Shown one piece after another: positions 1-18,497 of a stretch of 21,631 nt of DNA (its first letter is position 1; every line of letters begins with the position of its first letter). Origin of the DNA: Candidatus Fervidifonticultor sextus. GTDB lineage: Bacteria; Sysuimicrobiota; Sysuimicrobiia; Sysuimicrobiales; Humicultoraceae. The DNA lies in NCBI GenBank assembly GCA_031459875.1, contig JAVKHQ010000002.1:105975-127605 (forward strand), given 5' to 3'. The notes below the pieces were generated by a model. That model was given only the letters and a program-made list of their open reading frames with translations, searched no databases and was not told the DNA's origin. A program made the position numbers and the translations under genes.

Positions 1-540
1 GGCCTGCTCGAGGAAGAACGGGTCGGTTTCCACGCCCAGGGCCTCGTAGATCCGGCTGCGGGCGGCGCGCAGGTTGGCCCACACCGCCACGTCGATGATG
101 GCGCCGTCGTCCAGGCCCACCCCGCGCAGCCGCGTGATGTGCTCCTCGGTCGGATGGCCGGTGGATGCGGCCAGCGCGTAGTCCAGGACGGCCACCTCGC
201 GCGCGCTCAGCCCGGCCGCCCGGTAGTCGTCCAGCACCGCGCGCACGCGGTCCAGCCCGCCGAGGTCCCGCTCGACTTCCGTGGCGTACACCAGCACGCA
301 GTAGGACGACCGCAGCCGCTGCGCCACGAGCAGGCTGATCAGCCGCCGCTCCTGCGGGCTCAGGCCTGAGGCCTGCTTGACCGCGGCGGTCAGGGCGTCG
401 AAGGCCGCCGCGACCTCGGGCCGGCTCGAGAGCGCCTTGGTGGCCTCCATGACGAATCCCAGCCGCGCCAGTTCGGCGTCGTAGACCTGCCGCAGCGACC
501 CGCTGACTTCGTCCTCGCTCAACGTCTTGACCCAGGTCAT
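1..540 (-). CDS. AhpD-like / carboxymuconolactone decarboxylase family peroxidase-related protein (3' end runs off the window)
   Basis: Not in the ORF track because there is no stop in the window. Manual translation from ATG 540: MTWVKTLSEDEVSGSLRQVYDAELARLGFVMEATKALSSRPEV...GLSPQERRLISLLVAQRLRSSYCVLVYA...DYRAAGLSAREVAVLDYA...ITRLRGVGLDDGAIIDV... matches the AhpD/CMD pattern. Purine-rich RBS upstream. Confidence 0.8.
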   Translation of the reverse strand, partial: MTWVKTLSEDEVSGSLRQVYDAELARLGFVMEATKALSSRPEVAAAFDALTAAVKQASGLSPQERRLISLLVAQRLRSSYCVLVYATEVERDLGGLDRVRAVLDDYRAAGLSAREVAVLDYALAASTGHPTEEHITRLRGVGLDDGAIIDVAVWANLRAARSRIYEALGVETDPFFLEQA

Positions 541-571
541 GGCCACCCCCGTCCTTCCCCGGCTCAGGAGC

Positions 572-1396
572 CTATGGTTTGCGTGCGCTGAAGATGACCG
601 AGCGTGCCGCCTTCGGCTGCTGCGATGGGGGGATCAGACGGCGCATCAGGGCGATGAGCTCTGGGGTAAACAGCGGATACTGCTCGCACTGGTCTACCCC
701 GAAGGGCAGCTCTTCCCCACGCCGGATGTCGACGAACCCGATGTTCTTCAGTTTGCTGACGAAGACACGCTCCGCCAGGGCCCCCGACAGTCAGCCCGCC
801 CACGCCGCCGCGCTGGTCAAGATCTCCGGCGGCAGGTCGTCGTCCACCACGATGTCGGCGATGACCATGCGGCCGCCCGGCTTCAGGATGCGAAAGATCT
901 CGGCAAACGCCCGCGACTTCCGCGGCGAGAGGTTGACCACGCCGTTGCTGATGGCGACGTCTGCGCTGTCCGAAGGCAACGGGATCGCCTCGATCTCGCC
1001 CTGCACCCACTCGACGTTGTTCACCCCGGCCTCGGCGGCGTTGCGCGCGGCGACCTCCAGCATCTCGGGCAGCATGTCGAGGCCGATGGCCCTGCCCGTC
1101 GGCGCCACCACGCGGGCCGCCAGAATCGTGTCAATGCCCCCGCCGCAGCCCAGGTCGATGACGACCTCGCCGGGCCGCAGAGCGGCGGCACGGACGGGGT
1201 TGCCGACGCCCAGCGCCTGCTCGATGGCCCCCCGCGGCAGGACCGCGAGCTGGTCGGGATCGTACAGCCGCTCGGCGACCGTGCTCTTCGCGCCGACCAC
1301 CTCCCGGTAGGCTCGCCGGACGATCTCTTTGATGGCGTCCTGACCGAGCAGGTCCTCACCGGCCGGCGCCGGGGGATGTCCCCTGGCGTGGCTCAT
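572..1396 (-). CDS. ArsM-like class I SAM-dependent methyltransferase, predicted selenoprotein (Sec at TGA 791..793, residue 202 of 274)
   Basis: SAM motif VIDLGCGGGID and ArsM-like segments ALGVGNPV, ISNGVVNLSP, RILKPGG. The frame continues past the TGA for 72 codons (LSGALAERVFVSKLKNIGFVDI...SVIFSARKP) to TAG 572..574. The TGA sits at the ArsM W-x-G-C-x-x-G-A cysteine. ATGA overlap with the anti-sigma stop. Confidence 0.85.
756..778 (-). promoter_or_regulatory. Putative bacterial SECIS element of the methyltransferase
   Basis: Transcript reads UGA-N12-CUGGCGGAG-CGUGU-CUUCGUCAG: 9-bp stem (two G-U pairs) and a 5-nt loop with GU at positions 2-3. The loop starts 21 nt after the UGA. Confidence 0.7.
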
Positions 1397-1650
1397 CCTC
1401 GCTCACCCCTCCCTTCCCGCTCGCCCAACCGGGCCAGCAGGGCTTCCAATCTGACCTGGGCCTCGGGCGCGATCTCCCTGGTCGCCCCCGAGCGCTTCAG
1501 CCGCTCCCTGAGCTGCCGGGCGAACTCCAGCTCCCCGCAGCAGTGCCGGCACAGGCCCAGGTGCTCCTCGAGTTCGTCCTCCTGCACCCGGCCGATGTTC
1601 CGGTCAAGATAGGCCCACAGCCGGGCGACGGCTTCTTTGCAGGTGATCAC
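1393..1650 (-). CDS. Zinc-binding anti-sigma factor (zf-HC2/ZAS), soluble, 85 aa
   Basis: MITCKEAVARLWAYLD...EEHLGLCRHCC contains an N-terminal Cys plus the HxxxCxxC ZAS motif. GTG start overlaps the sigma stop (GTGA), with GGAGG upstream. The track's 219-aa version has a spurious N-terminal extension. Confidence 0.88.
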   Translation of the reverse strand: MITCKEAVARLWAYLDRNIGRVQEDELEEHLGLCRHCCGELEFARQLRERLKRSGATREIAPEAQVRLEALLARLGEREGRGERG

Positions 1651-2255
1651 ACGCCCGCCTCCTGGTGCGACATGAGCAGCCGGTGGCGAACCGCGTAGTC
1701 CCAGATCTCCCGCTCCATCTGGCGGCGACCTCGGGACAGCCAGGTCAGGACCGTGCCCAGCGGCTTTCGCGTGATCCCCGCGATCTCCCGCGCCTTGAAC
1801 CCGTACACGTAGGCGAGGATCAGGGTGATCCGGTACGACGGGTGTAGCCGCTGGAAGACCTCGATGATCCTCGCGTCGTCGAAGAGGTCGAGGAAGTCCA
1901 GGTGCACGCGATCCGAGTAGGGGAACGGGTCTTCCTCGACGATTTTGTCGAAGAGATCGAAGGGCTCGTCGACCGGCAGGTCGTCCGGATCCTTGCCGCG
2001 CAGGGCGCGCACGCGGTCGTAGTAGGCATTGGTGAGCACGCGCGTCAGCCACAGCCGAGGTCGCTCGCGGTTGCGCAGCCGCGGGAAGCCGCGGAATGCG
2101 CGCAGCAGCGTATCCTGCACCAGGTCCTCCGCCTCGGCGCGGCTTCCAGACAGGCGCACCGCCAGCGCATAGAGGTACGCCAGATGCGGTCGGACGACAT
2201 CTTCAAACTTGACCTCTGGAACAGCCGCTGGACCCCCCACCAGCCTGCCTCGCAC
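1647..2255 (-). CDS. ECF (sigma-70 group 4) RNA polymerase sigma factor
   Basis: Region 2 (AEDLVQDTLLRAFR, WLTRVLTNAYYD) and region 4 (GFKAREIAGITRKPLGTVLTWLSRGRR). Start is GTG 2255 or in-frame GTG 2240. Confidence 0.92.
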   Translation of the reverse strand: MRGRLVGGPAAVPEVKFEDVVRPHLAYLYALAVRLSGSRAEAEDLVQDTLLRAFRGFPRLRNRERPRLWLTRVLTNAYYDRVRALRGKDPDDLPVDEPFDLFDKIVEEDPFPYSDRVHLDFLDLFDDARIIEVFQRLHPSYRITLILAYVYGFKAREIAGITRKPLGTVLTWLSRGRRQMEREIWDYAVRHRLLMSHQEAGV

Positions 2256-2276: not shown

Positions 2277-2303
2277 GACGCATCAAGGGCGTCGATTTAT
2301 TGC
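2277..2303 (-). promoter_or_regulatory. Putative ECF-sigma (autoregulatory) promoter GCAATAA-N16-CGTC
   Basis: Minus strand GCAATAA-atcgacgcccttgatg-CGTC just upstream of the sigma gene. The same boxes and spacing recur at 18471..18497. Confidence 0.65.
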
Positions 2304-2616: not shown

Positions 2617-3396
2617 TTATCCTTCCGCAATCGGAAGCTGCCAAAGATCTAGGGCCAGGTCCACAGGTCCGTGAAACGCCTGCAATGCTTCGTCTTGGAT
2701 CGTCTTGGCGGGTATCACACGCTCTGACGGAAGGTGTGTTAGAACTAGCCGTTTAACCCCGGCTCGCTCCGCTACTGCACCGGCTTCCTCTCCGGTGGAG
2801 TGCGGCATGATCCGAGCCTGCGCCTGATGGGCCCGGTCCCACGTCGCCTCATGCACCAAGAGGTCGGCACCTGCTGCTGCCGTAACGACCGACTCCGCTG
2901 GACTGGTATCCCCCGTAATAACGATCACCGCGTGTCGGAGTCTAACTCGGTATCCGACACTGCCAGAGATATGCTCCACCGGAAAAACCTCCACTGTCAC
3001 CCCCGCCAGCGGGTTGCACTCCTCGCCAGTTCGGAGTCCGACAAAGGCGAAGCCGCCCCGATGTCCTGAAAGATGACACATGCGGCCAAGCGCCGCAACT
3101 GTCTCGTCGCTGCCAAACGTAGTCAGACGCGTCAAGACCTCAGGACAACGGAGTCGAAACCAGATCAGCAGCGGGAAGAGTCCACCAACGTGGTCCCAGT
3201 GCCGGTGGGTAATAAAAATAGCCCTCAGGTCAACAGGCCGTAGCCCGGCACGAAGCACCTGCCGCAACGTCTCCAGGCCGCTCCCAGCATCGAACAACAC
3301 AAATGGCCCATCCTCGTGGACCAGCGCCAGCGCTGATTGACAACGTTCTTCGTTGTCTGCAGCTCCTGTTCCAAGGAAGACAAAACCAAAGTTCAC
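2617..3396 (-). CDS. MBL-fold metallo-hydrolase, RNase Z/arylsulfatase-like
   Basis: FLGTGA, LFDAGSG, THRHWDH metal motif, ITGDT, LLVHEAT, LVLTH. GTGA overlap with the tctA stop. Confidence 0.88.
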   Translation of the reverse strand: MNFGFVFLGTGAADNEERCQSALALVHEDGPFVLFDAGSGLETLRQVLRAGLRPVDLRAIFITHRHWDHVGGLFPLLIWFRLRCPEVLTRLTTFGSDETVAALGRMCHLSGHRGGFAFVGLRTGEECNPLAGVTVEVFPVEHISGSVGYRVRLRHAVIVITGDTSPAESVVTAAAGADLLVHEATWDRAHQAQARIMPHSTGEEAGAVAERAGVKRLVLTHLPSERVIPAKTIQDEALQAFHGPVDLALDLWQLPIAEG

Positions 3397-4901
3397 TTGT
3401 GGAGCGCTCCGGATCCTCTTGTGGCACGCACACGCCGCCAGATTACGGATGCTACAATGCCAAGCACCATAGCCAGCAGCAATCCTCCGCTGATCGGCCT
3501 TTGAAGGAAGACCAACGGATCGCCCCTGCTCATGTACAAACTCTGCCGAAACGTTCGCTCGAGCATTGGGCCCAGCACAAGGGCAAGGATCAGCGGCGCC
3601 ACGTCAAAGTCGAGCTTTTTCAGAATGTAGCCAAGGATGCCCATGGCGAGCAAAACGAGCAGATCGAGTACACTGTTGTTTACGCTAAAAGTGCCTACCA
3701 GCATAAAGACCAGAACGAGCACAAGAAGCATGGGCTGAGGTATCCGGAGGAGGCTCACCCAAAAACCCACCAGCGGAAGGTTCAGGATGAGGAGGGCCGC
3801 ATTGCCAACGTACATCGACGCCACTAAGCCCCAAAACACCTCGGGACGTTCCTGCATGAGAAGCGGCCCTGGCTGCACGCCGTGGATCATCAAGGCGGAA
3901 AGCAGCATTGCCACTGCCGGAGCAAAGGGCACTCCCAAAGCCATTAGCGGGATCATGGCCCCGGTGGTGGCCGCGTTGTTGGCCGCTTCGGGCCCCGCCA
4001 CGCCTTCAATGGCACCCCGGCCGAGCTCATCCGGCCGTTTGGCGAGCCGTCGCTCCAGGTTGTAGGAGGCGAAGGAGGCGATGACCACAGCAGGGCCGGG
4101 GACAAGGCCGACCGGAAAACCCACCGCCGCCCCCCTGAGAATTGCAGGCAGCGCTCGACGCCATTCGGTGCCGGTAGGAAGCAGATCCCGGAGCCGAACC
4201 CCCTCTACCTTGGGGAGTCCCCCCATTCGCTCGGCGACTAGCAGAACTTCGGCCATGCCGAAGAGGCCCATGGCTACTGGAACCAACTCGATTCCCTGCG
4301 CTAGGTTCAACCTGCCGAAGGTATACCGCCTCACTCCGGAGATCGGTTCCATACCCACGGTACCGAGCGCGAGGCCAAAGGCCAGAACCAGCAGCCCCTT
4401 CCACACGGAGCCGCCAGAGACGCGGGACAGCACGAACAGCCCTACAAGAGCCAGGACGAAATACTCCGGCGGTCCAAAGGCTAATGCGAAATTGGCCAGG
4501 ACCGGCGTAAACAACATGAGCCCGACAACACCGAGAGTGCCGGCGACGAACGAGCCAACAGCCGCCACCGCCAATGCAGCGCCTGCCCGTCCTCTTTTCG
4601 CCATCTCGTACCCATCCAGCGCGGTCACAACCGAGGCGGTCTCTCCCGGGACGTTCATCAGAATGGATGTCGTAGAACCACCGTACATACTCCCATAATA
4701 GATTGCCGCCAGCATGACGAGCGCGGTCTCCGGCCTCAGTCCCAGCGTAGCCGGCAAGAGTAACGCCATAGCCCCGATGGGACCTATCCCTGGCAGCACC
4801 CCCACGAGCGTCCCTATTGTCGCTCCGGTTAGAGCCGCTAGAAGATTCTCCCACGCAAGGGCGATTGAGAAACCATACAGCAGTTCATTGACGGAATTCA
4901 T
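3393..4901 (-). CDS. tctA: Tripartite tricarboxylate transporter large permease TctA
   Basis: GTLVGVLPGIG, YYGSMYGGSTTSILMNVPGE, GPEAANNA, HGVQPGPLL signatures. Start moved to ATG 4901 (MNSVNELLYG). Confidence 0.93.
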   Translation of the reverse strand: MNSVNELLYGFSIALAWENLLAALTGATIGTLVGVLPGIGPIGAMALLLPATLGLRPETALVMLAAIYYGSMYGGSTTSILMNVPGETASVVTALDGYEMAKRGRAGAALAVAAVGSFVAGTLGVVGLMLFTPVLANFALAFGPPEYFVLALVGLFVLSRVSGGSVWKGLLVLAFGLALGTVGMEPISGVRRYTFGRLNLAQGIELVPVAMGLFGMAEVLLVAERMGGLPKVEGVRLRDLLPTGTEWRRALPAILRGAAVGFPVGLVPGPAVVIASFASYNLERRLAKRPDELGRGAIEGVAGPEAANNAATTGAMIPLMALGVPFAPAVAMLLSALMIHGVQPGPLLMQERPEVFWGLVASMYVGNAALLILNLPLVGFWVSLLRIPQPMLLVLVLVFMLVGTFSVNNSVLDLLVLLAMGILGYILKKLDFDVAPLILALVLGPMLERTFRQSLYMSRGDPLVFLQRPISGGLLLAMVLGIVASVIWRRVRATRGSGALHK

Positions 4902-5051
4902 GCAAGTCGATCCAACCCGCAATGATCCGGAACCTGTCAACACGGTCCGACTGGAGACCCGGGCAGCGAATCCTCTGCCCACCGAACCTCCGGCCGGTTG
5001 ATATCGGGGTAGGATTGTCCTCGGGGCAACGACGCAGCCCGTTCGATGCCA

Positions 5052-6014
5052 TCATCGTAATTTCAGCTTTCTGACCATGTCGCCAAAGAACGTGTAGTCT
5101 CGCTCCAGTTGTCTCTTCAGGTCGGACGGCCCCATATAGTCAATGACATAACTGTTGTCCTCGGCAAATTTCCTGAAGGCCTCGGTCTCGACGGCTCTCT
5201 TGAGGGCGTCGTGGAGGATCTGCACCACCCGATCCGGAGTGGCTTTAGGGACAATCACAAAGTGATAGACGCCTGCAGAAATGTCGTACCCCAGTTCGGG
5301 GAAGGTCGGAACGCCTGGAAACAGCGGGCTCCGCTTTGCGGAAAAAATTGCGAGCGGCCGTACCCGGCCCGCCCGCACATGGGGGATGACCTCAACTGGT
5401 AGCCCTACAACGGCCTCGATATGCCCCCCCAGTAGGGCCGAAATGTACTCGCCAGCGCCGGCAAATGGCACGTGGGTCAGGTTGACACCGGCCTTTTCCT
5501 TAAGGGCCTCAAGGTCTATGTGCGGAATCGTGCCTACGCCTGCGCTGCCGACGCGTACCGCGCCAGGGCTAGCCCGTGCCTGCTCCAGCACGTCTGCCAG
5601 GGTCCGCCAGCGCGCGTCAGCGCGCACGCAGAAGACCACGGCATGGCCGCCGATCTTGATCACCGTCCGGTAGTCCTCAGGAGTCCTGTAGGGCAAATCG
5701 GTCAAATGAGGCTGAACTGTCATGACAGCCACTGCGGTCATTCCGATTGTGTAGCCATCGGGTTTTGCCAACACGACTTCCGCGGCCCCTATCGTTCCAG
5801 CCCCTCCCGGCCGATTGACCACATAGACTGGGAAGAATGGCCTCGCAGCCTCAACCAGCGCCCGCGCGACCAAGTCGATGGCCTGACCTGCGGGCCAGCC
5901 CACAATCATTGCTACTGGCTTGATCGGGTACGATGGACCCGGAGCCCCAGGAGCGGCGGAGGCCAGCCATACCGTGACGGCAAGGGCTATCATGATATGA
6001 GCGATGCGCATCAT
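5052..6014 (-). CDS. tctC: Tripartite tricarboxylate transporter substrate-binding protein (Bug/TctC family)
   Basis: Signal peptide, YPIKPVAMIVGWPAG, VVNRPGGAGTIG, KPDGYT, HVPFAGAG, PGVPTFPELG. AGGAGG RBS before ATG 6014. Confidence 0.92.
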   Translation of the reverse strand: MMRIAHIMIALAVTVWLASAAPGAPGPSYPIKPVAMIVGWPAGQAIDLVARALVEAARPFFPVYVVNRPGGAGTIGAAEVVLAKPDGYTIGMTAVAVMTVQPHLTDLPYRTPEDYRTVIKIGGHAVVFCVRADARWRTLADVLEQARASPGAVRVGSAGVGTIPHIDLEALKEKAGVNLTHVPFAGAGEYISALLGGHIEAVVGLPVEVIPHVRAGRVRPLAIFSAKRSPLFPGVPTFPELGYDISAGVYHFVIVPKATPDRVVQILHDALKRAVETEAFRKFAEDNSYVIDYMGPSDLKRQLERDYTFFGDMVRKLKLR

Positions 6015-6086
6015 GGTGGTTCCTCCTTTCCAACTCTTGACCATAGCTCCCGAACGCACGCCACCTCTGCGATTCGTGCCGACGAG

Positions 6087-6539
6087 TCAACGAAACAAGA
6101 TTCCCAACGGAAGCGGAACCCCGAGCAAAATGGCGAACAAATAGTGAGAACCTAACGCCACCAGGAGGCTGATCGCAACTTTCAACAACCGGGAGGGCAG
6201 ACCCATCACTTGGAGGATGACGAGTGTGACCAGGGCCGCAGCCAGCGGATGACCCGCGTAGGGAAGCAGAGCGATGTAGCCAAGGGTGGCTCCAACGACC
6301 GCCGTTACCCGCCAGCGACTCCTCTCCTCCGGCCACTCGATGGATCGCCACCGTCGATCACGTGTTGCTTCCAGGCCCACACCGAACGCGCTGAGCACCA
6401 TCAGGCCCCCGACGAGCAACGGATAGAGGCCAGGCCCGGGTTGGGCCAGGGTCCCGCGAGGATACCGGTGGGCCTCAACGAGGTACAGCATCCCTGCCAA
6501 CGAGCTAAGGACCACTATGACGAAGAGGTACTTCCTCAC
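6087..6539 (-). CDS. tctB: Tripartite tricarboxylate transporter small permease TctB
   Basis: QPGPGLYPLL motif, several TM helices, C-terminal LLGVPLPLG. Probable start GTG 6539 (the track extends it to 6638). Confidence 0.85.
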   Translation of the reverse strand: MRKYLFVIVVLSSLAGMLYLVEAHRYPRGTLAQPGPGLYPLLVGGLMVLSAFGVGLEATRDRRWRSIEWPEERSRWRVTAVVGATLGYIALLPYAGHPLAAALVTLVILQVMGLPSRLLKVAISLLVALGSHYLFAILLGVPLPLGILFR

Positions 6540-6627
6540 TGTCTGCTCTGCCAGGGACGAAAGAGCCTTTCCCAGATCGCAAGCGCATCGAGCACGCCAG
6601 CTTGCAGTCCCCTGAGTGCTAGAAGTC

Positions 6628-8574
6628 TCATAGCTCAAGAATCTCTTTCATGACGTGCCCTTCCGCATCGCGCGGCGTCGGGATGTCCAGCAGGCGCGCC
6701 AGCGTCGGGGCCAGGTCGATGAGGTTGACGGGCCGGGTCGGCCAGAGGTGTTTGACCCCGGGGCCGGCCAGGATCACGGCCGCGTGCATCTCCGGCACCG
6801 TGGGCAGGGTCAGGTGGGCTCCGGTGAAGTTCTGCAGCAGCCGCGAGGCCTCGAACCTCTCCATGTTGACGATCACCCGTTCGGTACCGTCCCGGTACCT
6901 GACGGCGGCGGGGTAGACGTATGGGTTCGCCATGTACCCGGGCTTCCAGGCGTAGAGCACATCACCGATTCGGTCATAGCCACGCCCTTCATAGACGCCC
7001 AGAAGGCGCGCGTCTTGTTTGCGCACGGCCGCAGCCACCACGAGTTCTCCCGTTACGGGGTCGCGCAGGCGCATCAGCGCGTCGATGACCTCGTCCTGGA
7101 CGCGGGCATAGTCCGCGGGGTCGACGCATCCCTGCGGGTCGCGCCCCTTGAGGTTGATGAAGATATGGGCGTGTCCCGGTTCCAAGGGATAACACTTCGT
7201 ACGTGACCAGTCGATGGCCATCTCGCCCGTCTGCGGGTCGAGGGTGAACGTCATGAGCCCGGCCTCGGCCAGGCAGTATTTGAGGAACGGGAAGAAGTCC
7301 AGGTGGGTGAAGCCGTGGTCCGACACGGCCAGCACCACGGTCCGCTCCAGGTCGACACTGCGGAGAATCTCGGCCACCCCCAGGTCCACCTCCCGGTAGA
7401 CGTCACGGATGGTGCTTAGCCAGCGGTCGGCCGTGGCAGGGTCGTAGGTCCGGGACCGCGGTTCGACGCCTCCGTAGAGCACATGCTCGATGTGGTCGAT
7501 GGTGCCGACCCACGAGAATGCCAGATCCCACGCCTGGGTGCGCAGCACGTGGGCGGTGGCCCGCATCCACCAGGCGTTGTGGGCACTCAGCTGGGCTCTG
7601 AAGGCGTCCAGGGGAATCCAGCCGTCCATGAACGCCCAGGGATCGTCCACCTCCATGTACGGCCCGGCCACCGCCTCCAGCTCCGGGGTCAGTTCGGCAG
7701 GGATGGTGTAAGGTTCTGCCGTGTTGATGGCGGTCACGTAGAGCCGCAGGTCGCGGGCGTCGGGGCTGAGGGCGACCAGCTGGAACCGGAACCGCCCTCG
7801 GCGCGTCCCGGTAGCGGTCTCGAACGTCTCCGTGATCCAGTCGCTCAGTTCGCCGACACGCAGTACGGCGACGGCGGCCCGGGCGTCACGCGTGGGGGCG
7901 ACGACGACCCGATCGTACCCGCTCTGCCCGGTGGCTACGATGGCCACGTGGTAGCGGACGCCGCGGGCATAGGTCGGCGGGACGTCGATGACGATTTCCA
8001 GCGGCGGCAGCGGTCCAGGAGCAAGGCCCGACCAGCCGGAGGCCGGCTCGGGGGTGACCACGACCATCCGCCCCGGCACCTGGTTGCACGGGAACCGCTC
8101 CGTGGCAAAGAAGGCGCTGCTGGCGATGTCGAACAGCGGCATGTAGAAGAAACGGAAGGGCGGATTGAGCGCGGCCGCCACCTGGACGCCGCGCTCGAGG
8201 CCCATGGGCCACGTCACCGGCCAGTTGATCAGGGCGGGGCGCCGGCCGGCCCGCATGCCCGCCTCCCAGAGCGTCTCCGCCATCTGAATCCGGCGGTCGA
8301 ACGACGTATGCCAGCGGTCCAGCGGCTCGCCCGGCAGGTGCACCATCAGGCTGGGGACGCCGGTACTGCCGGGCCCGGCGCCGGTGACGATCGCAGACCA
8401 CGCGGCGGCGGTCAGCGGCGGGAACGTGGTCAACGCACGGGCGAACACGCCGCGGCGCATCAACGCCGCCAGGGCCGGCAATACGCCCTCGTCGGCGAAC
8501 CGGCGCACGAGGTCCGGAAGCGCGGCGTCCAGTCCCAGGACCAGGAGCCTGTCAGGCCTGGTGGGCATGGGCAC
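6628..8574 (-). CDS. Alkaline phosphatase superfamily, nucleotide pyrophosphatase/type I phosphodiesterase-like protein
   Basis: LVLGLDAA, FPPLTAAAWSAIVTG (Thr nucleophile position), DHIEH, VSDHGF, INLKGRDPQG, DLAPTLARLL. No signal peptide seen. Start is 8574 or 8568. Confidence 0.88.
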   Translation of the reverse strand: MPMPTRPDRLLVLGLDAALPDLVRRFADEGVLPALAALMRRGVFARALTTFPPLTAAAWSAIVTGAGPGSTGVPSLMVHLPGEPLDRWHTSFDRRIQMAETLWEAGMRAGRRPALINWPVTWPMGLERGVQVAAALNPPFRFFYMPLFDIASSAFFATERFPCNQVPGRMVVVTPEPASGWSGLAPGPLPPLEIVIDVPPTYARGVRYHVAIVATGQSGYDRVVVAPTRDARAAVAVLRVGELSDWITETFETATGTRRGRFRFQLVALSPDARDLRLYVTAINTAEPYTIPAELTPELEAVAGPYMEVDDPWAFMDGWIPLDAFRAQLSAHNAWWMRATAHVLRTQAWDLAFSWVGTIDHIEHVLYGGVEPRSRTYDPATADRWLSTIRDVYREVDLGVAEILRSVDLERTVVLAVSDHGFTHLDFFPFLKYCLAEAGLMTFTLDPQTGEMAIDWSRTKCYPLEPGHAHIFINLKGRDPQGCVDPADYARVQDEVIDALMRLRDPVTGELVVAAAVRKQDARLLGVYEGRGYDRIGDVLYAWKPGYMANPYVYPAAVRYRDGTERVIVNMERFEASRLLQNFTGAHLTLPTVPEMHAAVILAGPGVKHLWPTRPVNLIDLAPTLARLLDIPTPRDAEGHVMKEILEL

Positions 8575-8577
8575 CTC

Positions 8578-9408
8578 CTACCGGAGGGCTCCCAGGGTGA
8601 GCCCTCGGACGATGTGGCGTTGCATGGCAAAGGCGACGACGATCACGGGCCCCATGATCATCACCGCGGTGGCGGCAAAGGGTCCCCACAGCGTCTCCTC
8701 GGTGGTCAGGAATCCGAAGATCGCCACCGGGGCCATACGTACCCTGGCCCCGGTGAGCACCGAGGCGTAGACGAACTCGTTCCAGGCGTTGATGAACGAC
8801 AGGATGGCGGTCACCGCCATGCCGCCGTATGCCTGGGGCAAGACGATCCGCAGGAAGGCGGCACCCCGGGAGCACCCGTCCACCAGGGCGGCCTCTTCCA
8901 GTTCCCGGGGGACGTCGAGGAAGTACGTCGTCATCAGCCAGACGGCGAAGGGGATGGTGATGGTGAGGTAGATCAACAGGATCCCGGTGTAGGTGTCCAG
9001 CAGCCGCAGCCTGGAGAGGATCAGGAAGAAGGGGATCAGGAACCCGACGGGCGGTGCCATCTGCGTAAACAGCGTGTAGAAGAACAGCGGCTCCCGGTAG
9101 GGAAAGCGCACCCGCGCGTAGGCGTAGCCGGCCGGCACGCTGATGGCCAGGGTCAGGAGCATGGTCAGGCCGCCGACCAGGGCACTGTTGACGATGCTGG
9201 GCGGGATGTCGACCGTGCCCAGCGCGGTGCGGTAGTGCTCCAGCGTCGGTGTGAACCAGAGGCGAGGGGGCAGCGTGAAGATATCCGTGCGGGTCTTCAA
9301 CGATGTGGCCAGGACCCACACAACCGGCACAGCCCAGATCCCGATGGCGACCAGCAGCGCCGCATACCGCAGCGCCGTCCGGGCCGCACGCCCGACGTTC
9401 CGCTTCAC
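8578..9408 (-). CDS. Carbohydrate ABC transporter permease (MalG-like)
   Basis: EAA loop VPRELEEAALVDGCS and FINAWNEF. GTG start 9408 overlaps the upstream stop (GTGA). Confidence 0.92.
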   Translation of the reverse strand: MKRNVGRAARTALRYAALLVAIGIWAVPVVWVLATSLKTRTDIFTLPPRLWFTPTLEHYRTALGTVDIPPSIVNSALVGGLTMLLTLAISVPAGYAYARVRFPYREPLFFYTLFTQMAPPVGFLIPFFLILSRLRLLDTYTGILLIYLTITIPFAVWLMTTYFLDVPRELEEAALVDGCSRGAAFLRIVLPQAYGGMAVTAILSFINAWNEFVYASVLTGARVRMAPVAIFGFLTTEETLWGPFAATAVMIMGPVIVVAFAMQRHIVRGLTLGALR

Positions 9409-10394
9409 GCCTCCACCTCCACGGCGGCGCGCAGGCGGCCGAAGGTCGCGGTCATGGCGGCCGTCAGGATCAGGAGGGTCGTGGTGAGCGTGGCACCGTA
9501 GCCGAGGTTCAGTGAGTTGAATGCGATCCGGTATGCGTAGAGGTTGAGGATCTCGGTGGCGGTCCCTGGCCCGCCGCCGGTGGCGGCGTAGATCGCGTCG
9601 AACGCCCGGAGGGCCACAATGACGCGCAGCACGACAACGGTGACGATGGCCGGGCGAATCAGCGGAAGTGTGATGTAGCGGAACCGCTGCCAGGCCGTGG
9701 CCCGGTCCAGCATGGCCGCCTCGAAGGGCTCCACGGGAAGCGCGGCCAGGCTGGCCGAGAACACCAGGAAGGCAAACGGCGTCCACTGCCAGGTATGCAG
9801 GGCAATGACCGCGCCCAAGGCCAAGGTGGGATCGCCCAGCCAGCTGTGCGAGCCCACGCCTGCCAGCACCGCCAGGTAGTCCAGCAGGCCGTAGCGCGGG
9901 GTGAGCAGCAGCGTGCGCCACACCAGCCCCACCACCACCGGGGCCAGCACCATGGGGAGCAGCACCGCCGTGCGCATGGCATTGCGGCCCCGCATCTCCC
10001 CCGCCAGGGCGATGGCGAAGGCCAGGCCCAGCGCGACCTGGAGGGTGACGCTGGTGGCGGTGTAGACGGCGGTCACGCGCAGGCTGTGCCAGAAGCGCGG
10101 GTCGGCCAGCATCGCTCCGTAGTTGGCGAGGCCGACGAATCCCGTGGCCCAGGGTCTGGTCAGCTCGATACGGAAGAACGTCACCGCCAGCAGGAACAGT
10201 AGCGGCGCTGTGGAGATGATGACCAGCAAGAGGAGGCTTGGACCCACCAGCAGCAGGCCGAACCGGGCCTCGCCGCCGGGCCGCGCGGGCGGCAGCGCGC
10301 GGGCGGCCGGGACGGTCCCGGGGCGCCCGGGCGTCAGGCTGTCGGCGGGACCACCCCGCGCAGCGGCTCGTGGCGACCTTCCCGTCACGGCCAT
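9405..10394 (-). CDS. Carbohydrate ABC transporter permease (MalF-like)
   Basis: FVGLANY, WQWTPF, EAAMLDRATAWQRFRYITLP, TGGGPGTATE. Start uncertain; ATG 10394 chosen. Confidence 0.9.
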   Translation of the reverse strand: MAVTGRSPRAAARGGPADSLTPGRPGTVPAARALPPARPGGEARFGLLLVGPSLLLLVIISTAPLLFLLAVTFFRIELTRPWATGFVGLANYGAMLADPRFWHSLRVTAVYTATSVTLQVALGLAFAIALAGEMRGRNAMRTAVLLPMVLAPVVVGLVWRTLLLTPRYGLLDYLAVLAGVGSHSWLGDPTLALGAVIALHTWQWTPFAFLVFSASLAALPVEPFEAAMLDRATAWQRFRYITLPLIRPAIVTVVVLRVIVALRAFDAIYAATGGGPGTATEILNLYAYRIAFNSLNLGYGATLTTTLLILTAAMTATFGRLRAAVEVEA

Positions 10395-10448
10395 ATCGTG
10401 ATCACAGGGCGTATCTTGGCCGATCGTTACCTTCCGCCGGCCCACACG

Positions 10449-11840
10449 TCACCGGCGCAGAATACGCGACAGCTCCGCGTTGGCCTCGTCGAGGGCCTGT
10501 TTGGGGGGCTTGCGTCCCACCAGCGCCTCTTGGATGGCGATGGCCATCACCTCGCCGATCTCGGGCCACTCCGGAATGCGCGGACGCCAGTCGGCGTCGG
10601 TGTCCTCCCGCAGCGCGGTGAGCACGACGTCGGCGTAGTCGCGGGTGAACGCGATGTCCTTGCGATAGTCCGCGTCCCGCCAGATGGACATGCGGTTGAC
10701 CCCGGTGCGCACCACGGCGTCGGGACTTTCCTTGAACGTGGCCGACCGGAGCTGCGTCGGCCGGCTGGCCAGCCACTGGAGGTACAGCCAGGTCGCCTGC
10801 TTCTTGCGCGCCGGCAATGCAGCGTTGATGGGCATGGCCCAGTTCCAGATGCTGGTGACCCGCCTGTTGGCCGGGCCCTTGGGCCACCGCTGATAACCGA
10901 TCTGTCCCGCGACCTTGGACTTCGCCGGGTTCTCGATGACCGATGCCGTGCTGTTGGCGTCGATGTACTGCACCAGCGTCCCCGCGGCGAACGCCTCCAT
11001 GATCTCCGGCCAGTTCCAGTTCTCCACGCCCTTCGGGGCGAACTCCCGAAGCACGCTTACGTAGTATTCCAGCGACTTCACCCCGGCCTCGCTGTTCACC
11101 GTCGGCCGGCCCGCATGGTCGAACCACTGGCCGCCGTAGGCTCGGAACAGCGACGGCCAGATGTACATGTTCTGCCCGGGGCCGCGAAAGCCTCGAAGCG
11201 CCAGGCCGTAAAGGTTCTGGGCGGGCGCATGGCTGCGCCTGGCCGTCTCGCGCAACTCGTCCAGCGTCTCGGGCGGGCGCAGTCCTAGTCGGTCATACAC
11301 GTCCTTGCGATAGATGTGGATGGTGACTTCGCCTTCTACCGGCATGCCCCACAGGCGACCGCGCACGGTGTTGGCCCGGCGCCAGAGCGGCACGATGTCC
11401 TCCAGGTCGAACCAGGCCTGGTCGGTGAGCTTCGAGTCGTTGAGGAAGAGGTCGAGCGGCTCGACCCAGTTGTTGACCGCGTAGAGAGGGAGGTACATCG
11501 GGTCGGCCGTGTGGCTGGCGTAGTTCGCGGTGCGGGCGCCCAGGTCCAGGACCGCCTTCTCGCGCATCTCGCGGGGCGGGATGACCTCGAAGGTGACCTC
11601 GATGCCGGAGAGACGGGTGAACTCCGGGGTCACCGCGCGAAATTTGGTGAAGTAGTGGGCCGGTGTGACCAGGATGTGGATCCGCTCCCCGGCCAACTGG
11701 CGCCAGTTGATCCTGGCAACCGCGTAGGGGTCGCCGCCGGAAGGTGCCGCCCACGCGGCCTCCAGCGTCCGTCCCAGATAGGCAGCAGTGGCTCCGCCAA
11801 CGGTCAGGCGGAGCAGTTCACGTCGCGAGATCCTGTGCAT
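10449..11840 (-). CDS. Sugar ABC transporter substrate-binding protein with Tat signal peptide
   Basis: N-terminal SRRELL twin-arginine motif with AWA cleavage site; IYRKD, PPETLDEL, YGGQWFD, NPAKSKVAG typical of SBP family 1. GGGGAG RBS. Confidence 0.92.
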   Translation of the reverse strand: MHRISRRELLRLTVGGATAAYLGRTLEAAWAAPSGGDPYAVARINWRQLAGERIHILVTPAHYFTKFRAVTPEFTRLSGIEVTFEVIPPREMREKAVLDLGARTANYASHTADPMYLPLYAVNNWVEPLDLFLNDSKLTDQAWFDLEDIVPLWRRANTVRGRLWGMPVEGEVTIHIYRKDVYDRLGLRPPETLDELRETARRSHAPAQNLYGLALRGFRGPGQNMYIWPSLFRAYGGQWFDHAGRPTVNSEAGVKSLEYYVSVLREFAPKGVENWNWPEIMEAFAAGTLVQYIDANSTASVIENPAKSKVAGQIGYQRWPKGPANRRVTSIWNWAMPINAALPARKKQATWLYLQWLASRPTQLRSATFKESPDAVVRTGVNRMSIWRDADYRKDIAFTRDYADVVLTALREDTDADWRPRIPEWPEIGEVMAIAIQEALVGRKPPKQALDEANAELSRILRR

Positions 11841-12967
11841 CGCTCTCCCCCTCCCTCATCGTGGATCTTCACCTGGGGATACATCGTGCGTTCGATCCGG
11901 GCTACGAGCGTCGGCACGACGACCAGCTGAACGACGATGCCCGGCACGCCGGTCGCCAGCGCCGCCTGCAGGTAGGCCACCGCCGACATCTTGAGACCCA
12001 GCGCCGGGCCTACGGTGGCGGCGGCGACACCCAAGGCGAGCCGTCCGGCCGCCAGCGTGGGTACGAGCCAGACGTACTCCCGGGCCAGCGAAAGGTGCAG
12101 TGGCACCTGAGTCCGGGCGTGGCCCGGCCGCGTGCCGTATGCACGTGCCCAACCACGCACGACTCCCGCCACCAGACCGTACGTGGCCAGCTCGACCATC
12201 ATCAGCGGCGCCACCGGCGGTATCACCGGCGGCATGCCCGTGAGCAGATGCGACAGCGCGGGGGCGACGGCCCCGACGAGGCAGCCGACCCGGGCACCGC
12301 CCAGCGCTCCCATGAGGAGCACCGGCAGGTGCATGGGGAGGAGCGCCGGGCCCAGGCCGACCATGTGGACGACCAGGGGGAGCGTCACGGCCATGGCTAG
12401 GCCGACGCCGGCAGCCGCCAGCGCGTGCACCGCATGCCGCGCATCCGCAGAGGTGCCAAGGATGCGCGTGGGCCGGCGCTCGGCACGTCCGGCGTCCGGC
12501 CGGCGTGCAGCCAGCCGGGCACCCGTGGCACGCACTGCAGCGACCACGCCGTCGAGGTCGGCACCCCCCGCCCGGGCGGCCTCCGCGGCGGCCTCGAACG
12601 GACAGGGGCCGTCGCCACGGCAGTTGAGGATCCTGGGCACCTGGCGCTGGCTGGTGAAGGCCACGCCCCGCGCGCGAGCCTCGCGGGCCGCCGCCTCGCT
12701 GGCCACCTCGGCGAAGATCATGCGCACACCGGCCCATGCCGCCACCGCCACGGCCGCCGCGCCGGCGATCCGATCCGCCAGCGCGGCACCGGCGATCCCT
12801 CGCGCGCGCAGGTCGTCCGCCGCCTGCACCAGGGCATCCAGGCCGGGGTCGGCCGACTCGGCCAGCACCAGTCCCTCGCGGACGATGACGAAGCCCAGCG
12901 CTCGGTCCCGCAGTCGCGCGGCGGCTATGGCCAGGTCCCGGGGCGCCCCGTCAGGGAGAGGACCCAT
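11804..12967 (-). CDS. DUF1893 (TM1506-like) domain fused to an ECF transporter S-component
   Basis: N-half ADRIAGAAA...VASEAA...VPRILNCRGDGPCPFE is the DUF1893 pattern. C-half LPMHLPVLLMG...APALSHLLTGMPP...MMVELATYGLVAG...PGIVVQLVVVP is the ECF S-component pattern. Confidence 0.72.
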   Translation of the reverse strand: MGPLPDGAPRDLAIAAARLRDRALGFVIVREGLVLAESADPGLDALVQAADDLRARGIAGAALADRIAGAAAVAVAAWAGVRMIFAEVASEAAAREARARGVAFTSQRQVPRILNCRGDGPCPFEAAAEAARAGGADLDGVVAAVRATGARLAARRPDAGRAERRPTRILGTSADARHAVHALAAAGVGLAMAVTLPLVVHMVGLGPALLPMHLPVLLMGALGGARVGCLVGAVAPALSHLLTGMPPVIPPVAPLMMVELATYGLVAGVVRGWARAYGTRPGHARTQVPLHLSLAREYVWLVPTLAAGRLALGVAAATVGPALGLKMSAVAYLQAALATGVPGIVVQLVVVPTLVARIERTMYPQVKIHDEGGGERCTGSRDVNCSA

Positions 12968-13919
12968 CGCCGCGCTCCGTCAGCCCTTCGTACACCCGGA
13001 CCAGCGCCGCGCTGTCCAGGTCGCCAAAGCCCCGGGCCCGGGCCAGGTGGTTGAGGAGCTGGACCAGCGTCGTCAGCACCGGCGCGCCCCCTGCCGTTCG
13101 GGCCATGCCCACGGCCAGGTCGGTGTCCTTGCAGAGCAGGTCGATGGAAAAGACAGGCGCGAAATCGCCGCGCGTCATCCTGTCGCCTGCCTCGCGGAAC
13201 AGTCCCGAGACGGTGGCGGCGCCGCTGGACACGATGGTCTCGTACAGCAAACCGGGCGCGATGCCGACGCGCGGTGCCAGGGCCATCACCTCTGCCGTGG
13301 CAGCGTTGATGATGGCAAACATCATCTGATTGAGCAGCTTCACGATGTGCCCGCTGCCGGGAGGGCCGACGTGGATGACCCGGGCTGCGAACGCCTTCAG
13401 CACCGGCCGCACCCGGTCGAGGACCGCCTGCTCGCCGCCCACCGGCACCGTCCATCGTCCGGCCGTGGCCGGACGGCCCAAAATGGGCGCGTCGAGAAAG
13501 CCGATCTCGACCGCGGCCGCGCGTGCGGCCAGCAGCCGCGTCGCGGCAGGGTCGCTGGTGCTGGTGTCGACGATGACCTGCGGCGGAGAGTTCAGAGCGG
13601 TCAAGCGGTCTGCCACCTGCCGGACAGCCTCCGGGCCAGGCAGCGACAGGATGGCCGCGACGGCACGAGCATTCAGGGCGTCCAGGTCCGGCACCGTGGT
13701 CGCTCCTGCTGCCGCTACCGCCGCCAGCGCCTGGGCGTCGGGGTCGTGAGCCATCACGTGATACCCGCCCGACAGCAGTGCCGCCGCGATGATCCGCCCC
13801 ATGGTGCCGCACCCGATGATGGCCAGCGGCGCCGGAGGCAGGATGAGGGCGGCCGACGACGTCGGGTGTGCGTCGCGGGTGGGTACGCGACCTGGGAGGC
13901 GCGGCGGCCCTGGTGTCAT
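12951..13919 (-). CDS. NAD(P)-dependent beta-hydroxyacid dehydrogenase (3-hydroxyisobutyrate dehydrogenase/tartronate semialdehyde reductase family)
   Basis: IIGCGTMG, VDTSTSDP, FLDAPILG, GSGHIVKLLNQ (catalytic Lys), FSIDLLCKD. ATG 13919 overlaps the larA-like stop (ATGA). The track's 828-aa ORF has a spurious N-terminus. Confidence 0.92.
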   Translation of the reverse strand: MTPGPPRLPGRVPTRDAHPTSSAALILPPAPLAIIGCGTMGRIIAAALLSGGYHVMAHDPDAQALAAVAAAGATTVPDLDALNARAVAAILSLPGPEAVRQVADRLTALNSPPQVIVDTSTSDPAATRLLAARAAAVEIGFLDAPILGRPATAGRWTVPVGGEQAVLDRVRPVLKAFAARVIHVGPPGSGHIVKLLNQMMFAIINAATAEVMALAPRVGIAPGLLYETIVSSGAATVSGLFREAGDRMTRGDFAPVFSIDLLCKDTDLAVGMARTAGGAPVLTTLVQLLNHLARARGFGDLDSAALVRVYEGLTERGDGSSP

Positions 13920-15364
13920 GACCGGGAGGCGGGCACGCCGGCAGTCTGACGCTCGGCGTGCAGGTGCACCTGGACCCGGGAGAGGCGTGGCACCACCAGC
14001 AGGCGCGGGCGTGGTCCGACGTGCCGCGCGGCGTGCCGCAGGGCGTCGTCGAACGTGGCGGCCGGGATGCACCCCATGCCGCGGGCGTGGGCGGGCGCAC
14101 GGGCGCCGACGATGTACACGGCCCGCGCGTACCGGTCGGCGAGTCCACCCATGTACGCCATGGAGAAGCCGTGGAAGGGATGATAGGCGTACCCGTAGCG
14201 GTACCGGCGGATCCACTCGGGCCGGGTGCACACCTCGTCTTCGTAGCGGGCCAGCGCGTCGACTGTCTGGCAGCGCTGTAACAGCCGGTAGATCTCCCGG
14301 TACGCCGGGAACCACTCGTCGTTGAACCAGCCGTCGCACACACACGCCGCGATGACGACGGGGAACGGCCGCAGCGCGCCGAAGGCACGGGCCAGGGAGG
14401 CGCCGATGGCCTGCTTGAAGAGCAGCGGGTTGGATCCCATGCCCGGCCCGTAGTGGAACGTCCGGGGAATCCCCAGCACCAGTACATCGGCGGGCTCGCC
14501 CGGCACCGTGACCTCGGTGCGGTGTCCGGCCAGGGGCCAGGTGGCCTGCTCCACCTCGGCCAGCCGTCCTGCGAATACCGCCAGCTGCTGGTTCTGGCCG
14601 TTGAGCACGGCGTCGACGGCGAAAAACGGCTGTTTCATGGCTCGCTCTATCGCCTCGCCGATGCGGCGCAGCTGGTGGCGGAAGCGGCTCCCGGTGGTGA
14701 TGGGGACGAAATCCGGCCGGAACATGGTGCCGGGCGCGTGGTGACACCGGATGGATCGCCATCCCACCAGACCGGTGCAGGGCATCTTGTACCCGCCACT
14801 GTAGCCACCGTAGGGGTTGCCCAGCGTGTGTCCCAGCACGATGGTCAGGTCGGCCTCCAGCACCGCGCGGTTCACTTCCACGACGTCGCCGTCGGCCGTC
14901 TCGCCCAGCCGCACCATGCCGTCCGGATCCTCGGCGTCGTGGTTGGTGAGCCGCCGGCCGCGAAAACGTGCGACGACCTCGGAGCCCAGGTAGCTTTCGA
15001 ACTCCTCCGGGAGGTTCTTTCGGTGCAGGCCGACCGCGCAGAGCAGCGTGATGTCGTCCTCGCGCACGCCGGCGTCGCGCAGGCGCTCCAGCAGCAGCGG
15101 GATGGTAACCCGCCGGTGCGCTGTGGCGTGGGCACCACCCTTCACGCGGTCGGGGAAGGCAATCACCACCCTGGCGCCCGGGCCGACCAGGGCCGGCAGG
15201 GGTGGCAGCCCCAGGGGCTGCGCCAAGGCCCGCGCGGTCAACGCGACGGGGTCCTCGGCGGGGACGGGGTCCCGGTAGAGCGTGCCGGGCTCCACCACGA
15301 CCGCGTCGTCGGGGACGTCGACCTCGAGAATGCCGTCGCCGTACTCGAGGGCTACCCGCGGCAT
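13916..15364 (-). CDS. LarA-family (lactate racemase domain) nickel-pincer-nucleotide-dependent racemase/epimerase
   Basis: LEYGDG start, VVIAFPDRVK, AVGLHRK, NHDAED, VEVNRAVLEADL, GYSGGYK, SIRCHH. GGGGGAAG RBS. Confidence 0.85.
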   Translation of the reverse strand: MPRVALEYGDGILEVDVPDDAVVVEPGTLYRDPVPAEDPVALTARALAQPLGLPPLPALVGPGARVVIAFPDRVKGGAHATAHRRVTIPLLLERLRDAGVREDDITLLCAVGLHRKNLPEEFESYLGSEVVARFRGRRLTNHDAEDPDGMVRLGETADGDVVEVNRAVLEADLTIVLGHTLGNPYGGYSGGYKMPCTGLVGWRSIRCHHAPGTMFRPDFVPITTGSRFRHQLRRIGEAIERAMKQPFFAVDAVLNGQNQQLAVFAGRLAEVEQATWPLAGHRTEVTVPGEPADVLVLGIPRTFHYGPGMGSNPLLFKQAIGASLARAFGALRPFPVVIAACVCDGWFNDEWFPAYREIYRLLQRCQTVDALARYEDEVCTRPEWIRRYRYGYAYHPFHGFSMAYMGGLADRYARAVYIVGARAPAHARGMGCIPAATFDDALRHAARHVGPRPRLLVVPRLSRVQVHLHAERQTAGVPASRS

Positions 15365-16519: not shown

Positions 16520-17284
16520 TCAGAGCATGCCTTCCACCTGAAGGAGGATCGCCCAGGCGATCAACGCTGCGCCCGCGGGCCCGGTGAGCCGGCTACCCCA
16601 CGGGAGCGTGCGCTCGGCGGTCATGACGGCGCCCAGCGCCAGCATCCACCCCAGGTGTGCGATGCCCACGGCGAACATGAGCAGCATGAGCGCCCAGCAG
16701 CAGCCGACGCAGAACAGGCCGTGGTGTAGCCCCAGCGCCCACGCGTCGCGACAGGGGTGGACACCCCGCCAGCGGCCCGCCAGGAACGTCAGCGGCGAGC
16801 GGCACTGGCTCAGGCAGCGCTCCTTCAGCGCCGTGAACTGGTAGGCGCCGGCGGCCAGCAGCACCCCGGGCGGGAGGATGGCGGCGAGCCAGGGCAGCCG
16901 CTCGACCAGTTCGTGCACCGCGACGACGTCCACGGCGAACGCCGCCAGACCGAACCCCGCCCAGACGCTCAGGTAGCCTGCGCCCAGCCGCAGCAGCAAC
17001 CGCCGGCGGTCCGGTCGGTGGGCGACCGCGCGGCGGAACAGGTTCACCAGCGGCAGGCTGCCCGGCAGCATCATGGCCACCGTCATCACGGTCCACCCGA
17101 CCACGAATGCTGCCAGCCGGAAGACCGGAGAGAGGGTGCTCGCCTCGGTCTCCCGGTGGCCTAGCCAGCCCGCGTACGGGGAGGAGCCCCACAGCGCCAT
17201 GATGGCCCACGCCGACCCGATCAGGGCCGCAAGCGCCAGCCGGTACCAGCGGGCGTCGTCAGGCGTGCGGAGGGCGCCGATCAT
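16520..17284 (-). CDS. DUF2182 family predicted metal-binding integral membrane protein
   Basis: WTVMTVAMMLP, AGAYQFTALKERCLSQCRSP, GLFCVGCCWALMLLMFAVG are DUF2182 signatures; adjacent to DUF1326. Confidence 0.88.
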   Translation of the reverse strand: MIGALRTPDDARWYRLALAALIGSAWAIMALWGSSPYAGWLGHRETEASTLSPVFRLAAFVVGWTVMTVAMMLPGSLPLVNLFRRAVAHRPDRRRLLLRLGAGYLSVWAGFGLAAFAVDVVAVHELVERLPWLAAILPPGVLLAAGAYQFTALKERCLSQCRSPLTFLAGRWRGVHPCRDAWALGLHHGLFCVGCCWALMLLMFAVGIAHLGWMLALGAVMTAERTLPWGSRLTGPAGAALIAWAILLQVEGML

Positions 17285-17305
17285 GCCGCAGCCGCGAGGC
17301 GGCGG

Positions 17306-17908: not shown

Positions 17909-18067
17909 AGCCGTCACCTCCCTGGTGGTGTGCGCGTCCCGCGCGCCTAGTGGGCGATCGAGAAGACCAGCTGCACGTTGTCTTCCCGCGCGTCGTTTCC
18001 ATGCGTTGTCCCCTCCTGTCTCCCCGTAGGTCCCAGAGTATTCCCCCTCTGAGACAGACACCGTCCC

Positions 18068-18430: not shown

Positions 18431-18470
18431 CCGCGTCACCCCCTCACCCCATCCTGAATCCATTGTGAGA

Positions 18471-18497
18471 GACGGGGCTGCGGCGCAGACTTATTGC
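18471..18497 (-). promoter_or_regulatory. Putative ECF-sigma promoter GCAATAA-N16-CGTC upstream of the Sec-DsrE operon
   Basis: Minus strand GCAATAA-gtctgcgccgcagccc-CGTC, ending 40 nt before ATG 18430. Same boxes and spacing as 2277..2303. Confidence 0.65.

Follow-up and report, generated by a model that had tools for sequence, protein, structure and literature searches.

A selenocysteine-containing ArsM-like methyltransferase with one arsenic-handling residue left, encoded in a predicted ECF sigma factor operon

We found that the 21,631-nucleotide stretch of DNA analysed here (the whole of which we call the window) encodes an ArsM-like selenoprotein in which one of the four arsenic-handling residues is left. 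Comparison with related sequences confirmed that this state is real, neither a product of chance nor an assembly error. The gene and its key codon are as follows:

572-1396, minus strand: ArsM-fold SAM-dependent methyltransferase of 274 aa with Sec202, V64 and G152 (UGA read as Sec).
791-793, minus strand: in-frame UGA encoding Sec202, at the position of CmArsM C224 (alignment and TGA/Cys alternation).

The first-pass annotation had placed this methyltransferase at 791-1220, which holds for the part before the UGA but not for the whole gene, which runs from 1396 to 572. The two altered motifs that it had reported, ALGVGNPV and ISNGVVNL, are both found in the protein. In a phmmer alignment with CmArsM (4kw7/5eg5) and CrArsM (5evj), V64 falls on CmArsM C72, G152 on C174 and U202 on C224; the claim that Sec occupies the one ArsM catalytic position left was thus borne out. 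The claimed absence of an N-terminal Cys was equally correct: residues 1-83 are Cys-free, and hence the C44 position is empty too. Neither functional pair is intact, as the metalloid-binding pair C174-C224 is reduced to U202 alone, with G152 at C174, and the N-terminal redox pair C44/C72 is gone. The protein contains two cysteines, C84 and C237. C84 lies in SAM motif I (DLGCGGG), aligns to CmArsM C92 and is outside the four arsenic cysteines; C237 is the Cys of the tail DQC motif.

The annotation had also proposed alignment and structure prediction against CmArsM, and these yielded an ArsM fold with V64, G152 and U202 at the positions given above. An AlphaFold model of the methyltransferase from a 63-row alignment (pLDDT 92.9) had CmArsM and CrArsM as its best fold matches (Foldseek E 5.5e-20; VIA Z 25.9, rmsd 2.5 Å over 219 residues), indicating that the ArsM scaffold and SAM site are kept. 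The class I SAM methyltransferase fold and motif I are present, the C-terminus carries a conserved YPLF..LMRRL region, and NF008823 was the top-ranked NCBIfam model, at 239.5 bits, under its cut-off of 263. In comparison with ArsM/AS3MT (CmArsM 4fr0/6cx6, CrArsM 5evj, human AS3MT 8xt7; NF008823/PRK11873), the protein has the same fold and SAM motif I and likewise places a chalcogen at C224, but C44, C72 and C174 are missing from it, and it is found in an ECF/anti-sigma setting rather than with arsR. Judged by sequence and predicted structure, it is ArsM-like in fold and SAM use, yet fails the ArsM residue tests. The nearest named relative, at 96% identity, is from Ca. Fervidifonticultor octavus (Ca. 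Sysuimicrobiota).

The missing cysteines are not peculiar to the window. We assembled 134 related loci (80 from metagenomes, 25 from Actinomycetota, 19 from the window's own phylum and 10 from named genome contigs), from which 9 duplicates, L203 and one unpublished genome had been removed and in which near-identical rows were retained. Residue 152 was Gly in all 134 loci, and residue 64 was V, L, M or T in 132, the other 2 not covering it; the V64 count is partly circular for the 80 metagenome loci, which were found via GVGNP/AWAGC patterns. The protein search and the whole-genome searches used no motif selection, and both V64 and G152 were present in 120 of the 120 best protein homologues listed. 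In 112 of these the gene callers had stopped at the UGA, so that the protein ends at WAG; the other 8 carry Cys and are full length. From these results, we conclude that the loss of the ArsM cysteines is, at the level of sequence, a fixed trait of a clade. C237 and C84 were considered as replacement ligands and rejected family-wide, as neither is conserved across the 134 loci: residue 84 is a cysteine in 70 and a serine in 62, residue 237 is a cysteine in 60, and both cysteines are missing in 48. In 6 loci the aligned region is wholly Cys-free. These counts support the earlier suggestion of a single selenium nucleophile or ligand.

Several observations indicate that UGA202 is read as selenocysteine. 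The genome encodes selA, selB, selD and tRNA-Sec, all above cut-offs, and its selD itself carries a TGA. In the 134 loci the column for residue 202 holds TGA in 95 and Cys in 39, and the 72 aa downstream of the UGA are conserved. The bacterial SECIS consensus provides the background for judging the hairpin that follows the codon:

758-776, minus strand: candidate bacterial SECIS with a 7-bp stem, a 5-nt loop and G at loop position 2 (allele comparison).

This candidate begins 17 nt past the first base of the UGA. Of 79 distinct Sec alleles, 73 preserve all 7 stem pairs, compared with 4 of the 36 Cys alleles, a count in which the stem was defined from the window sequence and the kin are not independent; in every one of the 79 Sec alleles, codons +6 and +7 have G as their last base. 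Taken by itself, the window hairpin folds no better than shuffled sequences (z 0.14), and the evidence for a SECIS is therefore comparative. This lack of excess stability, and the apparent frameshifts near residues 103 and 133 in two relatives (L107, L108), would suit the alternative of a genuine stop at UGA202 or of a pseudogene, leaving no catalytic chalcogen. Against it stand the encoded Sec machinery, the alternation of TGA and Cys in one column, the conserved sequence past the UGA and the specificity of the hairpin for Sec alleles, and we regard that alternative as extremely improbable.

Phylogeny bore out the expectation of a distinct clade. The clade and a small sister group were supported with SH-aLRT 99 in an IQ-TREE analysis of 89 rows (89 of 250 rows used, trait columns kept) and with SH-aLRT 96 in one of 65 rows with the three trait columns dropped; both trees were quick ones, without bootstrap. 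In these quick trees the clade is placed either beside canonical ArsMs as a sister group or within them; with the trait columns dropped, it grouped with a canonical ArsM at 86, and outgroup rooting was not clean. All three Cys are present in 14 of 14 long-form ArsMs, and the C174 position is occupied by Cys in 2 of 3 aligned DVU_1556-type proteins. The Cys of these two groups would favour loss of cysteine over gain on the sequences compared. In the window's phylum, 24 of 94 genomes carry a close form of the gene, and across 401 Actinomycetota genomes the gene turns up at about 27 places. Other single-Cys/Sec subfamilies were also found (FAGVANP..WTD/G-C/U, FAGVGY..WAAC, MAGTGNP and FCGVGNP), of which FAGVGY..WAAC adjoins OsmC on haloarchaeal plasmids. 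A common origin of all Cys-poor groups was neither shown nor rejected (p-AU 0.37).

Sec-containing ArsM-like proteins have already been catalogued, as tables in PMC13188914 and PMC9312934 show; the former lists the families of Haft & Tolstoy 2025, NF041537 (ArsM/AhpD), NF047649 (methyltransferase/UXPK-star) and NF041536 (ArsM/DUF2284). Searches of 251 genomes for each of NF041537 and NF047649 gave four over-cut-off members (L232 and L233; L237 and L241), and 4 of 4 match the window protein at the three key positions (V, G and UGA). The novelty implied by the first-pass annotation was accordingly overstated, since two catalogued selenoprotein families share the Val/Gly/Sec state, and the single-Sec ArsM core is, by sequence, not unique to the window gene. 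Linkage to an AhpD domain recurs in NF041537, as near the window gene. The members of the two families differ in carrying additional domains or tails with Sec, as well as a Cys placed two residues ahead of V64 (FCGVGNP), and in quick trees they form a branch separate from the window clade; the window protein stops at residue 274, with no fused second Sec domain or tail. No over-cut-off member of NF041536 was found in 251 genomes. The window clade is outside all three catalogued selenoprotein models: the window protein scored 189.5 bits against a cut-off of 510 for NF041537, 169.5 against 460 for NF047649 and 171.3 against 575 for NF041536. MduS (NF045649, cut-off 380), which has two Sec and CxxU where the window protein has one Sec, was absent from the best 25 of 50 families listed, all of them at 34 bits or more. 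The 'arsenite methyltransferase' selenoprotein of Fomenko et al. 2007 (WP_011987699.1) likewise has a UxxG Sec motif, as listed in PMC13188914 and PMC9312934. Among the top matches in a literature that was mostly non-subscription, neither Cys-poor ArsM-like selenoproteins nor the sigma coupling and promoter described below were the subject of any paper.

What is known of arsenic methylation bears directly on the missing residues. As set out in PMC6138428, all four cysteines of CmArsM are required for conversion of As(III) to MAs(III), the metalloid site consists of C174 and C224, and DMAs(III) is weakly held by C224 alone. For human AS3MT, PMC3877260 reports that C156S (the C174 position) and C206S lack activity on both iAs(III) and MMA(III), whether GSH, TCEP or DHLA is supplied, and that DMA binds one Cys. 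We infer that a protein without C174 could not clamp As(III) or MAs(III), and that without C44 and C72 the disulfide cascade could not run. The same genome carries a canonical arsM, in an arsR - GNAT - arsM operon (contig C40, 15848-17446), whose product scores 281 bits with NF008823 and has N-terminal CC motifs, GCG, SNC and AAC. This separate gene and the non-ars context of the clade support the earlier proposal of a different enzyme, an interpretation that is borne out in part. A second ArsM-like match is present in 21 of the 24 phylum genomes with a clade gene, the own-genome copy alone having been checked by residue; this fits an arsenic division of labour as well as divergence. The arsenosugar ArsM model NF038099 had no match in the 151 genomes searched. 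The missing Cys, the clade and sigma context and the separate canonical arsM together make canonical arsenite methylation by the window enzyme unlikely, and its substrate is probably something other than arsenite. Arsenic chemistry may nonetheless be retained, considering the binding of DMAs(III) by C224 alone and the one-Cys enzyme of Thermus. That enzyme, TtArsM of Thermus thermophilus, has one catalytic Cys and is reported to methylate arsenite (bioRxiv 2021.07.12.452139 / PMC8649762); by its description there it differs in being distant from ArsMs, with His ligands and ArsR/SmtB control, and its binding to the regulator TtSmtB is reported there.

The methyltransferase gene lies downstream of a sigma/anti-sigma pair and a predicted promoter:

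1393-1650, minus strand: zinc-binding anti-sigma factor, zf-HC2, C..H-x3-C-x2-CC (PF13490 over cut-off), overlapping the methyltransferase start.
1647-2255, minus strand: ECF sigma-70 factor (family profile matches).
2277-2303, minus strand: predicted ECF promoter GCAAT-N18-CGTC of the sigma/anti-sigma/methyltransferase operon (motif).

The anti-sigma protein has the RsrA-like H-x3-C-x2-C zinc motif of zf-HC2, with C/H/C/C/C conserved in 131 of 133 matches, and falls under the TIGR03988 cut-off (40.8 of 62.5). Zinc anti-sigma factors sense thiol-reactive stress. At the 114 loci where the upstream flank extends to 700 bp or more, an ECF sigma gene is upstream in 108 and an anti-sigma gene in 107, and the 6 loci without sigma constitute a sister subclade. 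Of 100 regions upstream of sigma genes, 81 contain the pattern GCAAT-N17/18-CGTC, against 0.3 for base-shuffled controls. A matrix built from 25 sites, the window's own sigma site among them, was run over the 3.05-Mb genome: the best site (25.8), which was outside the training set, precedes an operon beginning with a DsrE-like gene, and the sigma site came second (22.3). Scores in the rest of the genome were at most 17, in line with a shuffled background of 2-4 matches above 16. In the window alone, the plain pattern had 2 matches versus 0.43 expected, a number that 9 of 100 shuffles reach. ECF279 was considered and set aside: its predicted motif TTGCAA/CGTCTAA is similar, but its anti-sigma differs. 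In the portion of the ECF reclassification supplement (PMC7826278) that we searched, none of 14 'methyltransferase' passages has this context and no word beginning GCAAT was found. At one locus (L012), the sigma gene starts right after the end of a phosphodiesterase-like gene.

The second promoter copy and its operon, together with the gene at the window edge, are:

18471-18497, minus strand: second predicted ECF promoter copy (best-scoring site in the 3.05-Mb genome).
18068-18463, minus strand: DsrE-like selenoprotein, U-G-G-C (PF02635 over cut-off reading through the UGA).
17306-18061, minus strand: DUF1326 (DmdF family).
16520-17284, minus strand: DUF2182/PpoB2 (DmdE family).
1-546, minus strand: AhpD-like/peroxidase-related protein, S-x-x-C (TIGR01926 barely above cut-off).

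The shared promoter suggests that DsrE(Sec)-DUF1326-DUF2182 (16520-18497) is a second target of the same ECF sigma factor, and the small regulon so predicted includes two selenoproteins. The hairpin after the DsrE-like UGA has z -1.3. DUF1326 and DUF2182 adjoin the methyltransferase in other genomes. According to PMC12992908, the Roseobacter peroxidase DmdF belongs to the former family and DmdE to the latter, both being required during DMSP demethylation, and distinct homologues of the two occur elsewhere without a DMSP context. Between the two promoter-bearing operons, 2617-15364 (minus strand) is an unrelated insert with genes for an RNase Z-like MBL hydrolase, a phosphodiesterase-like protein, a sugar ABC transporter, a TM1506-ECF transporter fusion and a LarA-like racemase, as well as tripartite tricarboxylate-type transporter genes recognised by eye.

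We also assessed the neighbours of the clade genes, using a coding filter against shadow ORFs in the clustering. OsmC is near the methyltransferase in 30 of 134 loci, DUF1326 in 13 and DUF2182 in 11; of the two partners suggested in the first-pass annotation, AhpD-like genes are present within the fetched flanks in 18 and DsrE in 1. TlpA-like (6 loci), ArsR-rhodanese (6) and MBL-rhodanese (5) genes complete the sulfur/redox set. ArsR-like matches were found at 7 of the 134 loci of the clade, compared with 14 of 58 canonical ones, the flank lengths differing between the two sets, and no arsenic transporter/reductase cluster was among the recurrent neighbours of clade loci. The picture that emerges from gene content is of a thiol/oxidative-stress module, not an ars operon. 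The sulfur/redox neighbours are variable and present at a minority of loci, however, and would point to a stress regulon rather than to a substrate. The AhpD-like gene of the window crosses its edge (full gene, contig C12, 105918-106520), and all 23 AhpD-like matches spanning the motif have S/T-x-x-C with a single Cys. AhpD-type proteins usually have His at a position where the window's protein has Tyr.

We tentatively propose that the enzyme is a selenoenzyme that methylates reactive sulfur, selenium or tellurium species, or small thiols, via one ligand; a substrate needing one ligand would suit a lone selenolate beside SAM. The sole retained ligand would be the C224 equivalent, as Sec here and as Cys in about 30% of relatives. 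The enzyme would be expressed from an autoregulated ECF-sigma promoter, freed when the zinc anti-sigma thiols are attacked. The selenolate would take up a soft thiol-reactive species by one bond to give Enz-Se-X, where X is most likely sulfane sulfur, a persulfide, selenide/tellurium or a small thiol, and the terminal X could then attack the methyl of the neighbouring SAM. A thiol partner, for which AhpD-like, DsrE U-x-x-C, OsmC, thioredoxin and a low-mass thiol are candidates, would free CH3-X and regenerate the selenol. The role would thus be detoxification in thiol/oxidative stress, not arsenite resistance. Possible functional analogues under such a chalcogen chemistry are the H2S/methanethiol methyltransferases MddH, MddM1 and MddM2 (PMC12904073); these are described as UbiE/UbiG-type, and the main text of that paper makes no mention of arsenic. 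The proposal is weakened because these three thus give the ArsM fold no experimental link to S-methylation, and also because the retained residue is the one that binds DMAs(III) alone.

This last point leads to a different view, in which the enzyme is a one-ligand organometalloid methyltransferase that takes DMAs(III) to trimethyl-arsenic, or acts on Sb/Bi equivalents, downstream of canonical ArsM. The single-Cys binding of DMAs(III) in the CmArsM scheme and of DMA in AS3MT (PMC6138428 and PMC3877260) would suit it, as would the ArsM folds among the closest matches, the position of the clade beside or within canonical ArsMs, the second ArsM-like match in most phylum genomes, and a second single-Cys paralogue near 22 of 39 Cys-type loci, which suggests stepwise reactions. 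We consider it doubtful all the same, given the rarity of ArsR-like genes nearby, the lack of an arsenic transporter/reductase cluster among recurrent neighbours, regulation by a zinc anti-sigma rather than ArsR, and the loss of all internal reductant Cys. Arsenite itself could still be the substrate if ligands or reductants came from glutathione/mycothiol-type thiols, non-Cys residues or a partner protein: single-Cys TtArsM and an ArsR-M fusion poor in Cys have both been reported to act on arsenite, and the ArsM-AhpD(CxxU) fusion family has the same V/G/U core. This we judge unlikely. C174-position mutants are dead with each of the three reductants tried (PMC3877260), no one partner is conserved (neither AhpD-like nor OsmC), the AhpD-like protein is itself S/T-x-x-C, TtArsM is described as distant from ArsMs, and the genome already has a canonical arsM.

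The near-universal presence of sigma and anti-sigma genes, the only neighbours of which this is true, the overlap of the anti-sigma gene with the methyltransferase start, and the reported TtArsM/TtSmtB binding (PMC8649762) raise yet another explanation, a regulatory or relay role in which the Sec is methylated, or in which the anti-sigma zinc-cysteines or another protein thiol are methylated, tuning the sigma response. The sister subclade of 6 loci and the other single-Cys/Sec subfamilies are without the sigma pair, however, and first place in an autoregulated operon accounts for the linkage without binding; we hold this role to be more unlikely still. The remaining probability we assign to something else.

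The broader reading would be that a hidden ArsM-family branch has gone from a three-thiol arsenic site to a one-selenolate/thiolate site, methylates reactive S/Se species or dimethylarsenite via Enz-Se-X, and serves as effector of an undescribed ECF thiol-stress regulon. As part of that reading, the branch would span several subfamilies, in Ca. Sysuimicrobiota, Actinomycetota, Thermodesulfobacteriota and haloarchaea. We put this forward as a possibility that is itself rather doubtful. If it were true, the branch would produce volatile methyl-S/Se/As gases by an enzymatic route that has gone unrecognised, and 'arsenite methyltransferase' annotations and arsM counts would in many cases be wrong. 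Environmental surveys treat ArsM-like genes as arsenic-methylation potential, and the clade carries the 'arsenite methyltransferase' label in several database entries, yet is without the residues known to be required. The family also offers a natural experiment, with Sec, Cys and Cys-free backgrounds and with 3-Cys versus 1-Sec sites on the ArsM scaffold.

Further observations concern individual loci. The sister subclade (L109-L114) has G-L/M-GNP and YAG-U and is without sigma/anti-sigma; in L109 the aligned region is Cys-free. At 22 of 39 Cys-type loci, and at 4 of 95 of the Sec type, a second single-Cys/Sec ArsM-like paralogue adjoins the gene; L057, L136, L143, L151, L154 and L199 are among these loci. 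Near actinobacterial-type loci, a membrane protein (24 of 134 loci, e.g. L219:1-591) and a small Cys-rich protein (18 of 134, e.g. L169:1279-1530) recur, with no Pfam or NCBIfam match over cut-off. On haloarchaeal plasmids (L115, L116, L118) we found a cassette of MarR, OsmC and a single-Cys ArsM-like methyltransferase, in which the OsmC and methyltransferase genes are adjacent or overlapping. Finally, an Oscillospiraceae genome (L024/L230) encodes a canonical-type ArsM that keeps C72 and C174 and has Sec at the C224 position.
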